A DNA stretch of 64,000 bases from Actinomycetota bacterium (lineage in GTDB: Bacteria > Actinomycetota > UBA4738 > HRBIN12), in NCBI GenBank assembly GCA_046094825.1, contig JBJTIF010000126.1, forward strand, positions 8,989 to 72,988, written 5' to 3'. A program made the position numbers and the translations under genes. Positions 34,616 to 38,731 of the stretch are shown here, one piece after another; positions within the stretch are counted from its first letter, which is position 1; every line of letters begins with the position of its first letter. A model generated the notes under the pieces. It was not told the origin of the DNA. It did no database searches and saw only the letters and a list, made by a program, of their open reading frames with translations.

Positions 34616-34924
34616 ATGGACCTGCTCGCCCAGGCGTCGACCGGCTCGGGACTCGAGAGCCTCCTCATCCCCGCGATCCTCATCGTCGGGATGTACGTCC
34701 TGCTCATCCGGCCCCAGCGTGCCCGCCAGCGTGCGCAGCAGGCGATGCTCGACGATCTCGCGGTCGGCGACGAGGTGATGACCGCGGGCGGGCTCTTCGG
34801 ACGCGTGACGCGGATCGACGCGGAGTCGGGTCGCGTCACCCTCCGCATCGCCGCCGGCGTCGAGGTCGAGGTGCTCCGCATCGCGGTCCGCGAGCGGATC
34901 GCCCCGCTCACGCCGGAACCGTGA
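34616..34924 (+). CDS. yajC: Preprotein translocase subunit YajC
   Basis: Single TM segment with the YajC motif LIRPQRAR...GDEVMTAGGLFGRV. Confidence 0.8.
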   Translation: MDLLAQASTGSGLESLLIPAILIVGMYVLLIRPQRARQRAQQAMLDDLAVGDEVMTAGGLFGRVTRIDAESGRVTLRIAAGVEVEVLRIAVRERIAPLTPEP

Positions 34925-35634
34925 CCGATCGGCATCCGCATCCCGCGGAGGGGGTCCCCGGCTCCGCCGAGCCCACCGCGATCACCCTCGCCGACGTCCA
35001 GGCGAACCCCGAACTCTCGACGTTCATCGCCGCGGCGGACCGCGTCATGGAGGGCCTCGGCTACACGGAGCACGGGTTCCGGCACGCGAACCTCACCGCG
35101 AAGATCGCGTACAACGTCCTCACGCGCCTCGGGTTCGACGAGCACGAGGCGAATATCGCGTGCGTGTCGGGCTACCTCCACGACGTCGGGAACATGGTGT
35201 CGCGCGAGCTCCACGGCCAGACCGGGGCGATCCTCGTCTACGAGGCGCTCCGCGGTCAGGTCCCGGGGACCGACCTCGCGACGATCGTCGGAGCCATCGC
35301 GAACCACGAGGAGCCCAACGGCGCCCAGATCTCCGTCGCGGCGGCCGCGGTCATCCTCGCGGACAAGTCGGACGTCCACCGGAGCCGGGTCCGCCGCCAG
35401 GACCAGGAGGACTTCGACATCCACGACCGGGTGAACCTCGCGGCCGAACAGTCCTTCCTGCGGGTAGACTCCGCCGCCAAGACCCTCACGCTCGAACTCA
35501 CGATCGCCACCGACATCAGCACCGTGATGAACTACTTCGAGATCTTCCTCGGCCGCATGCAGATGTGCCGAACCGCTGCCCAGACCCTCGGCAGCCGGTT
35601 CCGCCTGACGATCAACGGCGCGGAGCTCGCATGA
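34921..35634 (+). CDS. HD-domain phosphohydrolase
   Basis: HD motif present (FRHAN...LHDVGN). GTG overlaps the yajC stop and the gene's stop overlaps the secD ATG. Confidence 0.7.
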   Translation: MTDRHPHPAEGVPGSAEPTAITLADVQANPELSTFIAAADRVMEGLGYTEHGFRHANLTAKIAYNVLTRLGFDEHEANIACVSGYLHDVGNMVSRELHGQTGAILVYEALRGQVPGTDLATIVGAIANHEEPNGAQISVAAAAVILADKSDVHRSRVRRQDQEDFDIHDRVNLAAEQSFLRVDSAAKTLTLELTIATDISTVMNYFEIFLGRMQMCRTAAQTLGSRFRLTINGAELA

Positions 35635-37643
35635 GGACCCGCCGGCTCTGGGCGTCGATCATCGTCGTCGCGACGCTCGTCGCGGGCGCGATCGCCTCGT
35701 GGGTCGTCGGCGTGCGTCCGGTGCTCGGGCTCGACCTCGAGGGCGGGGTCTCCGTGATCCTCACGGCGCCGCAGGACACGCCGCCGGACGTCATGGAGCG
35801 CGCGCTCGAGAACATCCGTCGGCGGATCGACGCGTTCGGCACCGCGGAGCCGCAGCTCTTCGTCTCCGGGACGAGCATCGAGGTGCAGATCCCGGGGCTC
35901 GCACGCGGCAGCGTCGAGGAACGCGCGATCGCGCGGTCGTGCGTCCGCGACGCGGGCGGCGCGTCGTGGGGCTGCTTCGACACCGAGGGCGAGGCCACGA
36001 CGGCGCTCGACGGCACGGTCGTCGCGCCCGTGGTCCGCCAGGTGTGCCTGACCGGCGACGTGTGGGGCGGCCAGGCGCCGTGCTTCCCCTCGGTCGACGC
36101 CGCGCAGACGGCGCTCGACGGCATCGCGATCGCGGCCGGCGACGCCGCGTCGCCCTCGCCGACCGGGACGGGACCCGCGCCCGCGACGACCGTGTGCCTC
36201 GACGGCACCGGGCTCGCGGAGGCGCCGTGCTTCGCGAGCCGCGAGGAGGCGCAGGCGGCGCTCGACGCGATCGCCCTCGGCGAGCCGGACGAGGAGTTCT
36301 GCCTCCAGCGCGACGGGGCGACGATCGAGGCCGACGGCGTCGTGCCCTGCGCGGCGACCGCGGATGCGGCCGATGCGGTCCTCGCGGGGCTCTCCGTCGT
36401 GACGGAGACCCGTGAGTTCTGCGTCGTGAGCTCGGCCGGTCGCGACCTCGGCTGCTTCGGGTCCCAGGCCGACGCGGACGCGAAGCTCCAGGCGACCGGA
36501 CAGGAGCGCCTCCTCGAGGTCATCGGGACGACCGCGCGGCTCGAGCAACGCGAGGTCCTCGGCATCTACGCCCCGGGCGACCCGACGTACGACGCGACCC
36601 CCCTCACGTGCGCGACGGACGCCGAACGGGCGACCGACGCCTGCTCGCCGGAGGCGCTCGCCGACCAGGAGGTCGTCTACGCGGGGCAGGGCGACGCCGC
36701 GGTGAAGTACGTGCTCGGTCCGCAGGCGCTCACCGGGGACGCGATCCGCCGCGCGACCGCCGTGTTCGGCACGGGCGGGACGGACGGCACCGGCGCGACC
36801 GGGTGGCAGATCGACTTCGAACTCACCTCCGCGGGCTCGGACGCGTTCGGCGAGCTCACGCAGCGCCTCATCGGCAAGCAGCTCGCGATCGTCGTCGACG
36901 AGGTCGTGATCTCCGCGCCGACGGTCCAGAGCGCGATCACCGGCGGCTCGGGCGTCATCACGGGGGCGTTCACCGAGCAGGAGGCTCGCGACCTCGCGAC
37001 GCAGCTGAACGCGGGGGCGCTCCCCGTCGCCCTCACGACCGAGCAGGTCCTCACCGTCAGCCCGACGCTCGGCAAGGAGTCGCTCGACCAGGGACTCCTC
37101 GCGGCGATCGCGGGGCTTGTCGCGCTCGCGCTCTACCTCCTCTTCTACTACCGGCTCCTCGGCATCGTCGCGTGGTTCGGGATGTCGATCTGGGCGCTCC
37201 TCGCCGTCGCGCTCGTGTCGCTCGCGGGGACGGCGATCGGCTACAGCCTCACGCTCGCCGGCGTCGCGGGGCTCGTCATCTCGCTCGGGGTGACCGCCGA
37301 CTCCTACATCGTCTTCTTCGAACGCCTGAAGGACGAGGTGCGCGCGGGTCGGACGCCGCGGGCCGCGGTCCAGCCGGCGTTCAAGCGCGCGTACCGCACG
37401 ATCGTCGCGGCGGACGTCGTGACCGGGCTCGCCGCGATCGTGCTCTACGTGACGGCGATCAGCTCCGTACGCGGCTTCGCCCTCACCCTCGGCGTCGCGA
37501 CCCTCCTCGACCTCTTCGTCGTGTACTTCTTCAAGCGTCCGACGGTCTTCCTCATCGCGCGGAGCGACCGGCTCGTGAACCTCCCCGGCTTCGGCCTCAC
37601 GAGCGGGGTCGCCGCGGAGCCCCTCCCGGGGGAGGGCCGATGA
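35631..37643 (+). CDS. secD: Protein translocase subunit SecD (670 aa) with an atypical Cys-repeat insertion in periplasmic domain P1
   Basis: TM1 and LGLDLEGG are followed by six TM helices at the C-terminus (RND-like). The insert is described under the repeat feature. Confidence 0.85.
   Translation: MRTRRLWASIIVVATLVAGAIASWVVGVRPVLGLDLEGGVSVILTAPQDTPPDVMERALENIRRRIDAFGTAEPQLFVSGTSIEVQIPGLARGSVEERAIARSCVRDAGGASWGCFDTEGEATTALDGTVVAPVVRQVCLTGDVWGGQAPCFPSVDAAQTALDGIAIAAGDAASPSPTGTGPAPATTVCLDGTGLAEAPCFASREEAQAALDAIALGEPDEEFCLQRDGATIEADGVVPCAATADAADAVLAGLSVVTETREFCVVSSAGRDLGCFGSQADADAKLQATGQERLLEVIGTTARLEQREVLGIYAPGDPTYDATPLTCATDAERATDACSPEALADQEVVYAGQGDAAVKYVLGPQALTGDAIRRATAVFGTGGTDGTGATGWQIDFELTSAGSDAFGELTQRLIGKQLAIVVDEVVISAPTVQSAITGGSGVITGAFTEQEARDLATQLNAGALPVALTTEQVLTVSPTLGKESLDQGLLAAIAGLVALALYLLFYYRLLGIVAWFGMSIWALLAVALVSLAGTAIGYSLTLAGVAGLVISLGVTADSYIVFFERLKDEVRAGRTPRAAVQPAFKRAYRTIVAADVVTGLAAIVLYVTAISSVRGFALTLGVATLLDLFVVYFFKRPTVFLIARSDRLVNLPGFGLTSGVAAEPLPGEGR
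35937..36665 (+). repeat. Six tandem ~30-40 aa Cys-pair modules inside secD (protein-level repeat; DNA motif gcgctcgacgg recurs)
   Basis: Each module follows C-x(10-15)-C-[FA]-x-[ST]-x-[DE]-A-x2-A-L-D; the six module sequences are given in the findings. Confidence 0.5.
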
Positions 37644-38731
37644 ACCTCGAACGCGCCATCTCGACGTTCCGGGGGCACACCGTCCCGCACTTCCGGATCG
37701 TCCAGCAGCGCCGCCGGTGGGCGATCGCGTCGGGGATCGTGATCCTGCTCTCCTTGGCGGGGTTCCTCGTGCGCGGCATCAACCTCTCGATCGAGTTCAC
37801 GGGCGGGACGCAGCTCCTCTACGAGAACCCGTCGGGTGCGACCGTCGATGCCATCCGCGGCACGCTCGCCGCCGAACCCTTCGCCCGCGAGGCGGCGGAG
37901 ATCCAGTCGGTCGGCAGCGGCGGGGTGTCCGTCCGCACGACCTCGCTCACCGACCTCACCCCGGACGAGCGGACGGCGCTCATCGCGGCGCTCGCGGACC
38001 AGGCCGGGATCGAGCCGGAGGCGATCAGCCAGCAGGTCGTCGGGCCGACGTGGGGCGCGCAGATCTCGCGCCAAGCCCTCATCGGGCTCATCGTCGTCCT
38101 CCTCGCGATCACCCTCTACATCACGCTGCGCTTCGAGTGGAAGATGGCGATCGGCGCGATGGTCGCGCTCCTCCACGACGTCGTGATCACGGGGGGCATC
38201 TACGCCCTCTCGGGTCGCGAGGTCGCACCGGCGACGGTCATCGCGATCCTCACGATCCTCGGGTTCTCGCTCTACGACACCGTCGTCATCTACGACAAGG
38301 TCAAGGAGAACGCGGACAACCCCGCGATGCTCGGGCGGGCGACGTACGAAGAGGTCGCGAACACCTCGATGAACCAGGTGTTCATGCGCTCGGTGAACAC
38401 GTCCCTCGTCGTCATCCTGCCGATCATCTCGCTCCTGTTCTTCGGCGGCGCGACCCTGAAGGACTTCGCGCTCGCGATGCTCATCGGGACGACGACGGGC
38501 GCGTACTCATCGATCTTCATCGCCACGCCGCTCCTCGTCGTCCTGAAGGAACGAGAGCCGAAGATGACGATGCTCCGTCACCGCCTCGAGCGCGAGGGCC
38601 AGCGTCACCGCGACGACGCCGCGCCGGTCGCTGCGGTCGCGACGGCGCCGGTCGCCGCGGTGCTCCCGTCCGCCGGCGCGACCTCGCCGCGACCCCGACG
38701 CACGAAGCCGAAGCGGAAGCGCCGCCGCTGA
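37640..38731 (+). CDS. secF: Protein translocase subunit SecF
   Basis: Six TM helices and a SecF-type periplasmic domain. The ATG overlaps the secD stop. Confidence 0.85.
   Translation: MNLERAISTFRGHTVPHFRIVQQRRRWAIASGIVILLSLAGFLVRGINLSIEFTGGTQLLYENPSGATVDAIRGTLAAEPFAREAAEIQSVGSGGVSVRTTSLTDLTPDERTALIAALADQAGIEPEAISQQVVGPTWGAQISRQALIGLIVVLLAITLYITLRFEWKMAIGAMVALLHDVVITGGIYALSGREVAPATVIAILTILGFSLYDTVVIYDKVKENADNPAMLGRATYEEVANTSMNQVFMRSVNTSLVVILPIISLLFFGGATLKDFALAMLIGTTTGAYSSIFIATPLLVVLKEREPKMTMLRHRLEREGQRHRDDAAPVAAVATAPVAAVLPSAGATSPRPRRTKPKRKRRR

Follow-up and report, generated by a model that had tools for sequence, protein, structure and literature searches.

A tandem array of cysteine-pair modules inserted into the P1 base of SecD in an uncultured Actinomycetota lineage

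We describe an unusual SecD protein encoded in a 64,000-nt stretch of DNA from an Actinomycetota bacterium (assembly GCA_046094825.1, contig JBJTIF010000126.1, positions 8,989 to 72,988; hereafter the window). SecDF is a conserved and mechanistically studied accessory of general secretion, and it pulls exported chains by the movement of its P1 domain. By its profile matches, the 670-amino-acid (aa) product of the window's secD gene is a genuine housekeeping SecD of an uncultured soil Actinomycetota lineage, and it carries five tandem modules of ~35 aa, each containing a pair of Cys residues, in a loop of the P1 base subdomain. The array is a real, previously undescribed addition to SecD; full-text literature searches on cysteines, disulfides and insertions in SecD or SecDF and on Actinobacteria gave no account of such an array. 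We favor, with a probability of roughly 70%, the explanation that the five modules were anciently amplified within the P1 base loop of a housekeeping SecD and form a structural appendage clamped by disulfide bonds.

The inserted array and its place in SecD

Translation of positions 35631–37640 yields the 670-aa protein. Its identification as SecD in an earlier note on this DNA, made from the sequence alone, was borne out by a score of 314.5 bits against the TIGR01129 equivalog model, above the cut-off of 244.4. The Pfam domains SecD_1st (residues 55–91), SecDF_P1_head (355–466) and SecD_SecF_C (469–640) follow each other in the order found in the SecD family, and a Foldseek search with the full-length AlphaFold model returned SecDF crystal structures as the best matches (E 1e-17). 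A 100%-identical NCBI protein from an "Actinomycetota bacterium" metagenome-assembled genome (MAG) is named SecD, and the same 670-aa gene occurs in independent metagenome assemblies with yajC, an HD-domain gene and secF as its neighbors. The gene and the segments of its product that bear on the insertion are the following (M1–M5, modules 1–5; pLDDT, predicted local distance difference test; hhalign values are probabilities of profile–profile alignments).

35631–37643 (+): secD coding sequence, 670 aa; TIGR01129 and Pfam SecD_1st, SecDF_P1_head and SecD_SecF_C; gene also called in independent assemblies
35793–35903 (+): N-terminal part of the P1 base subdomain, residues 55–91, ending in the IEVQIPGLA strand; PF21760 profile positions 1–38 of 60, Thermus SecDF 34–104
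35919–36497 (+): lineage-specific insertion, residues 97–289, five Cys-pair modules plus a Pro/Ser/Thr-rich linker; delimited by in-silico deletion
35925–36029 (+): M1, residues 99–133, C104/C115; hhalign against M2–M5, 87–95%
36030–36137 (+): M2, residues 134–169, C139/C151; hhalign against M1, M3 and M4, 87–97%
36138–36188 (+): variable Pro/Ser/Thr/Ala-rich linker between M2 and M3, residues 170–186; pLDDT ~56, lowest conservation of all segments
36189–36284 (+): M3, residues 187–218, C189/C200; hhalign against M1, M2 and M4, 90–97%
36285–36404 (+): M4, residues 219–258, C224/C240, with a longer hairpin loop; hhalign against M1–M3, 90–93%
36405–36497 (+): M5, residues 259–289, C264/C275, which is the best conserved of the five and most resembles the phage modules; consensus FCVVSSAGxxLGCF
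36498–36569 (+): residues 290–313, where the canonical P1 N-terminal subdomain continues with the helix QERLLEVIG and the strand TARLEQREV; TIGR01129 and PF21760
36600–36665 (+): sixth Cys pair, C327/C338, not a module, lying in the neck that joins the base strand to the P1 head; hhalign against M1–M5, ≤0.1%
36693–37028 (+): P1 head subdomain, residues 355–466, uninterrupted; PF22599, 102.7 bits, profile positions 8–114 of 114

The region is indeed extra relative to canonical SecD, as the earlier note had proposed. The TIGR01129 match falls into two pieces, the main stretch restarting at query residue 291 and position 77 of the 397-position profile, and Thermus SecDF aligns only to query residues 31–100 and 361–639, so that 260 query residues stand opposite 50 Thermus residues. 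The surplus amounts to ~193 residues (97–289) and a further ~20 residues in the neck, which corrects the previous estimate of ~230 extra residues. In the N-terminal (base) subdomain of P1, the insertion point is the loop that leads from the strand IEVQIPGL to the helix QERLLEVIG. In the native protein the match to PF21760 (SecD_1st) is split at profile position 38 of 60 and scores 38.0 bits, and in-silico deletion of residues 97–289 raised it to positions 1–58 of 60 and 44.6 bits. Because this deletion restores PF21760 and the PF22599 head follows intact downstream, the array does not lie in the head domain, to which it had been assigned; judged from these profile matches, it is a clean insertion into the P1 base subdomain that leaves the head untouched. 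The interval originally outlined, 35904–36665, corresponds to residues 92–345, and the six peptide strings quoted for it are exact.

The overall architecture resembles that of the SecDF proteins of Thermus thermophilus (3AQP and 5YHF) and Deinococcus radiodurans (5XAN and 5XAP), with TM1 (TM, transmembrane helix), the P1 base, the P1 head, five TM helices and the TM4 Asp in common. In contrast to the Thermus and Deinococcus proteins, which have ~50 residues between the anchor points, the window SecD adds ~193 residues after the PGL motif, and its neck, with the sixth Cys pair, is ~20 residues longer than in canonical SecDF. The 254-aa insert region produced no Pfam match at E up to 1, and the insert had no match in Pfam, NCBIfam or PDB sequences at permissive thresholds.

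Relationships among the modules were assessed by hhalign with module profiles built from 117 orthologues. M1–M4 aligned to each other with probabilities of 87–97% and E-values of 1e-7 to 1e-10, and M5 aligned to M1 at 92% and more weakly to M2–M4 (0.8–48%); by this profile comparison the five modules are homologs of one another. Six tandem modules had been announced, of which five stand as homologous units of ~35 aa. The sixth pair, C327/C338, is unrelated to them, and the idea that it marks a diverged module was rejected at a probability of ≤0.1% against all five; its surroundings are predicted to form short helices.

The array was present in every one of the 120 orthologues (659–699 aa, 60–100% identity) among the matches listed for a search with the full-length protein. 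When the alignment was used to scan GTDB at one genome per species, at least 110 genomes were found to encode a relative; 80 loci were retained, reaching down to 39% identity over the region, and 68 of these were checkable. The carriers are all uncultured Actinomycetota represented by MAGs, and they include GTDB UBA4738/HRBIN12. Among them is "Bacterium HR12", unclassified at NCBI, after which HRBIN12 was presumably named. A published table of MAGs gives HRBIN12 as a family within the order UBA4738 (PMC13248718). Three short contigs labelled Candidatus Velamenicoccus, Leifsonia sp. and Solirubrobacterales (loci L004, L023 and L058) also carry an array-type SecD, and they are probably mis-binned and not occurrences outside the lineage.

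Exhaustive HMMER searching of 1.84 billion representative proteins with a profile of the array gave 86 clusters at E ≤1e-3. At least 51 of these have the SecD flanking motifs and most others are visibly SecD fragments; the SecD-type clusters all come from the UBA4738/HRBIN12-like lineage. Since only 86 clusters match among so many representatives, the array is narrow and lineage-defining. This is also indirect evidence in line with the earlier note's view that the SecD of M. tuberculosis lacks such a motif. The insert might have turned out to be a known, widespread SecD-associated domain, a possibility raised at the outset, and it proved to be restricted to this lineage and to match no known domain. 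Addition of the GTDB genomes brought the number of distinct full-length sequences to 186, and in none of them had a whole module been lost or the copy number changed.

Pairing of the cysteines and predicted fold of the modules

SecD of the window has 12 Cys residues, at positions 104/115, 139/151, 189/200, 224/240, 264/275 and 327/338, all encoded by TGC, and none elsewhere. Under random placement the chance of all 12 falling within this 235-residue stretch is ~3.5e-6; the other long proteins of the window contain 0–5 Cys. All 12 lie between TM1 (residues 2–25) and TM2 (from ~482), in a segment homologous to the periplasmic P1 of the solved SecDF structures.

The pairs are conserved, and where they are lost they are lost jointly. 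All 12 Cys were kept in 94 of the 117 aligned orthologues (60–100% identity) and in 153 of the 186 full-length sequences. One complete pair was missing in 27 of the 186 (19 lack pair 1, 6 lack pair 3 and 2 lack pair 2), compared to the loss of a single Cys in one; these counts refer to sequences and not to independent events, and at least five separate losses are suggested because the replacement residues and the affected pairs differ. Five further apparent single losses, all in M4, look like shifts of the alignment, and in at least two of these loci (L070 and L071) all ten insert Cys were counted. The remainder of the module was retained after loss of a pair, with replacements such as R..T, T..E and T..R for C..C. 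In one sister SecD (P0132) pairs 2 and 4 are gone and the modules are kept.

A similar picture emerged from the 68 scored GTDB loci, 62 of which have ten insert Cys plus two neck Cys and five of which have eight plus two. The two neck Cys follow the insert in 67 of the 68, the exception (L064) being cut by the contig end. C327 and C338 are invariant in the 117-sequence alignment, as are both Cys of M4, and they are Cys in all 120 listed orthologues. Thus the earlier expectation that the pairs would be conserved across orthologues held. The opposite outcome, unconserved Cys positions in a low-complexity linker, was not observed, as low complexity is confined to the 17-residue linker between M2 and M3.

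Across the 68 GTDB species checked, the second Cys of a module and the first Cys of its successor are 23–24 residues apart at most junctions, the M2–M3 junction with its variable linker being the main exception. In contrast, the distance within a pair ranged from 9 to 39 residues in the same loci and reached ~60 in sister forms with a Ser/Ala/Pro-rich stretch in the M4 hairpin loop (an expansion of ~50 aa). The variable distance within pairs, together with the fixed spacing between modules, suggests that each Cys pair clamps the base of a variable loop. The M2–M3 linker is missing in the shortest orthologues; the longest GTDB orthologue has ~39 aa more of it, and some aligned orthologues have more still. 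Four sister SecDs (P0142, P0145, P0153 and P0174) have long Ser/Ala/Pro/Thr low-complexity stretches in the M4 loop, between its two Cys, and in the M2–M3 linker.

Structure prediction with AlphaFold2 and an orthologue alignment gave the same fold for each module: a long strand that runs just past the first Cys is joined by a turn to a short strand bearing the second Cys, and a helix of 9–10 residues follows, directly after which the strand of the next module begins. In M1 these elements are the strands 94–106 and 112–116 and the helix 119–128 (pLDDT >90); in M2 a strand at 130–141 and a helix at 155–163 are predicted, and in M3 a helix at 204–213. The modules had pLDDT >90 in the full-length run, a separate run with residues 76–362 gave a mean pLDDT of 87.6 and a predicted template modelling score (pTM) of 0.63, and low confidence was limited to the M2–M3 linker. 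The hairpin that the earlier note had named as a fold to check for in each module is what the prediction returned, followed by a helix.

Conservation is uneven along the protein. Mean identity to the window sequence is 33–49% in M1–M4, 60% in M5, which adjoins the canonical helix, and 66–85% in the canonical P1 head and TM parts. The positions kept in M1–M4 are mainly Cys, Gly, Ala and hydrophobic residues, and loop motifs characteristic of the individual modules, CLTG in M2, GTGL in M3, TL..D.G in M4 and SSAG..LG in M5, are conserved at 60–90% or more.

Because the pairs are conserved and lost jointly and because the hairpin–helix fold is predicted with pLDDT >90, disulfide-stabilized mini-domains, as first suggested in the earlier note, are the best reading of the modules, and the predicted bonds are strongly inferred. 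The setting is compatible with such bonds. An even-Cys bias in exported proteins was found in 31 of 31 aerobic Actinobacteria (PMC2823432), and disulfide-bonded proteins, as well as a dependence on DsbA-VKOR, have been described in Actinobacteria (PMC2823432, PMC12421883). Like the substrates of the actinobacterial DsbA/MdbA-VKOR system, the window SecD has even, paired Cys only in its exported part (PMC2823432, PMC12421883). It differs from the known actinobacterial disulfide proteins in that SecD is unmentioned in the main text of the mycobacterial study (PMC12421883), and six pairs, laid out as a tandem repeat in one Sec component, are not described in the papers that the literature searches gave.

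Relatives of the module outside SecD and age of the array

The motif is not confined to SecD; the only relatives of the module found outside it are in phage head-maturation proteases and in some small stand-alone proteins. Matches of the array profile outside SecD align to profile positions ~135–190, the M5 region. Eight such proteins were examined (P0185, P0192, P0199, P0201, P0202, P0203, P0208 and P0181); each contains 2–3 copies of the unit, for example GQFCVVSEDGSETLGCHDTREEAVDQL. A hidden Markov model (HMM) of the module scored 13–34 bits per copy in these eight phage proteins. By Pfam and PHROGs, seven of the eight are phage head-maturation proteases (Peptidase_S78, Mu gpI-like, phrog_976, phrog_80, phrog_328 and phrog_3894) or a portal fusion, and the eighth, P0199, has a marginal PHROG match only (E 1.4e-6). 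In four of the eight the module region falls in phrog_3684, a family of unknown function.

SecD and phage units share the pattern aromatic-C-V...G-C-aromatic/His-x-T-x-x-E-A-x-A over ~35 aa. Comparison of the SecD-module and phage-module profiles by hhalign gave a probability of 98.2% and an E-value of 3e-14 over 34 columns, a comparison that is partly circular, as the phage set was itself collected with a profile that derives from SecD and favors Cys. Single SecD modules gave no direct match to phrog_3684 at E up to 1. The phage modules differ from those of SecD in occurring in 1–3 copies in cytoplasmic or virion proteins and in often having His after the second Cys, compared to the five copies in an extracytoplasmic loop of SecD.

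Smaller carriers were also noted. Six stand-alone proteins of 45–69 aa (P0209–P0214) consist of one module each; five of them have the signature GCHPT, and none has a precomputed Pfam domain. Three small AT-rich proteins (P0184, P0191 and P0196) have two modules each. The existence of single-module proteins of 45–69 aa suggests that the unit folds on its own. Taken together, the modules of SecD, the phage proteins and the stand-alone proteins look like an unnamed family of Cys-pair hairpin–helix mini-domains.

A possible connection to DUF2188 (PF09954) is less clear. This uncharacterized small domain, the one named family to give any signal, has a similar hairpin-then-helix pattern, the link being transitive and weak, and to our knowledge it lacks a conserved Cys pair. 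Weak DUF2188 matches came from three of 19 phage-type modules (best E 0.0078), one phage-type carrier scored 22.2 bits against a cut-off of 22, and none of 144 SecD modules matched at E up to 10. Since only those three phage modules match, and weakly, and no SecD module does, kinship of DUF2188 with the SecD modules is unproven.

The duplication that gave rise to the array appears to be old. DNA identity between modules is 62–75% over 60 nt, and Tandem Repeats Finder detected no repeat of ~105-nt period in the DNA, which together indicate an ancient duplication. The earlier note had taken the recurring 11-mer GCGCTCGACGG as a sign of internal duplication. Duplication is upheld at the protein level, and the DNA signal is weak: there are two exact copies of the 11-mer in the region and five in the window, where 1.6 are expected, and three of 100 shuffles reached five. 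A recent DNA duplication was accordingly rejected, given the low identity between modules, the missing period and the weak signal of the motif. We also considered the adjacent canonical strand-PGL-helix segment as the source of the modules and rejected it, because its profile does not align to theirs (hhalign probability ≤0.1%).

Proposed structural role, competing explanations and the secD locus

In the current proton-driven model of SecDF, the base of P1 stays in place, forming a sheet or barrel together with the P4 domain of SecF, and the head swings on it (PMC5974789). We propose that an ancient internal amplification placed five copies of the module into the loop after the PGL motif of this base. 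After export, the Cys pair of each module would be oxidized by an actinobacterial DsbA/MdbA-VKOR system, and the bond would close the hairpin. The sixth, unrelated disulfide (C327/C338) would staple and stiffen the neck leading to the P1 head. The outcome would be a rigid, oxidation-stabilized appendage of ~20 kDa on the static P1 base, with the swinging-head mechanism unchanged. Such an appendage would most likely serve as a structural extension, a buttress or a docking surface in the wall-proximal space; that it is a catalytic element seems unlikely. A structural element fits better than a catalytic site because M1–M4 keep mainly the positions that determine the fold.

Several observations weigh against this proposal. 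Some orthologues do without one or two of the pairs, the pTM of the full-length model is only 0.46, and no disulfide-forming enzyme was identified in the window, of which the list of open reading frames (ORFs) was inspected. The phage modules, which belong to cytoplasmic proteins, carry the Cys pair as well, the recruiting profile itself favoring Cys; given these cytoplasmic modules, the pair may serve other than as a disulfide.

On the proposed reading, there is room in the static part of P1 for a large folded insertion (~20 kDa, probably with six disulfides) while the proton-driven core stays intact. The protein would thereby provide a natural test case, in a walled cell with a single membrane, for whether the geometry or surface of P1 is important outside the head cavity. 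The unnamed mini-domain of ~35 aa, found in SecD, phage head-maturation proteases and stand-alone proteins, could enter the domain databases. Lineage-specific expansion of exposed loops is common, and the practical impact of the finding is modest because the carriers are uncultured and the insertion has no associated phenotype.

Among the competing explanations, we regard as unlikely the view that the insertion is a neutral passenger, a self-folding repeat that was amplified in a tolerant surface loop and adds nothing to SecD. It would explain why M1–M4 evolve much faster than the rest of SecD, why large low-complexity stretches could accumulate in the linker and hairpin loops and why individual Cys pairs can be lost, and it would agree with the autonomous folding implied by the stand-alone proteins. 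However, a passenger would not be expected to keep its copy number in all 186 full-length sequences, to hold the 23–24-residue spacing at most junctions, to conserve module-specific loop motifs at 60–90% or more and to persist down to ~39% identity. Pure neutrality is thus disfavored by an invariant copy number and a largely fixed spacing in the face of divergence to ~40% identity.

Similarly unlikely is a more active role, in which the array would be a lineage-specific, disulfide-rigid arm, made from a mini-domain in common with phage head-maturation proteases, that holds or hands over exported chains, or docks a partner in folding or wall assembly, at the exit of the translocon. If so, the SecDF pulling cycle would gain an additional element for substrate handling or partner docking, and a family of Cys-pair hairpin–helix domains would be newly defined.

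We find it hard to credit that the Cys pairs are redox-active and form a thiol-disulfide relay or buffer near the Sec exit that aids oxidative folding. The clustering of 10–12 Cys on the extracytoplasmic face of a translocon-associated protein would suit such a relay, as would the reliance of Actinobacteria on oxidative folding. In contrast, there are no CxxC motifs and no thioredoxin-like matches, the Cys of a pair stand 9 to 39 residues apart, and ~60 in sister forms, and both Cys are predicted to lie in the strands of the hairpin, as for structural cross-strand bonds. The absence of CxxC, the variable spacing and the dispensability of individual pairs, whose loss leaves the fold in place, make a relay unlikely.

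Ligation of a metal by the Cys pairs, for example Zn shared between two modules or two proteins, is highly improbable for SecD because no further ligand is conserved and the pairs are lost independently of their neighbors. The idea draws on the kindred phage and stand-alone modules, which are cytoplasmic and often have a His right after the second Cys (GCHPT). The SecD modules are extracytoplasmic and have Phe or Tyr at that position with no other conserved ligand, and the loss of single pairs without that of the neighboring pair argues against shared four-Cys sites. Finally, an unstructured low-complexity linker or an artefact of assembly or annotation, which an Ala-rich region of 77–79% G+C might have suggested, and likewise the four fragments that were all a word-indexed search with the insert alone returned (it missed the identical protein), is refuted by the spread of orthologues (120 listed, at least 110 species-level genomes, many independent assemblies) and by confident structure predictions (pLDDT >90, regular secondary structure), with only the 17-residue M2–M3 linker behaving as low-complexity sequence.

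The remaining features of SecD and of its neighborhood are the following.

37035–37550 (+): TM2–TM6 bundle of SecD with the essential Asp D557; PF02355, alignment to 3aqp
37640–38731 (+): secF, 363 aa, of canonical size and translationally coupled to secD; PF02355 at 203 bits, and Sec_GG
34616–34924 (+): yajC; PF02699 on the called gene

The Asp residues of TM4 and TM10 and the Arg of TM11 have roles in the proton pathway of SecDF (PMC5974789). D557 of the window SecD aligns to D340 of Thermus, the TM4 Asp, and is invariant among the orthologues. SecF aligns to residues 442–728 of Thermus SecDF and keeps the equivalents of Thermus D637 (TM10 Asp) and R671 (TM11 Arg), so by alignment the residues of the proton-driven core are intact despite the insertion. 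The window SecD is also like canonical SecDF in its yajC-secD-secF operon and in having a neighboring SecF that keeps these essential Asp and Arg residues. SecF has no Cys and no insertion, the elaboration being confined to the P1 domain of SecD.

An HD-domain gene of 237 aa (PF01966, a weak match) lies between yajC and secD at 34921–35634 (+). It overlaps each neighbor by 4 nt, which suggests translational coupling; the ATG start of secD overlaps its stop codon (ATGA). The order ruvB-yajC-HD-secD-secF was found in 63 of the 80 related loci, and the remaining loci are cut by contig ends. We know of no HD-domain gene in the secDF operons of mycobacteria and Streptomyces. The G+C content of the window is ~73% and that of the Ala-rich insert region 77–79%. 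Two antisense ORFs opposite the insert, at 35532–36548 (−) and 35612–36565 (−), of 338 and 317 aa, were dismissed as high-G+C artefacts, and independent gene calls omit both. Such antisense frames are typical where the G+C content of third codon positions is very high.

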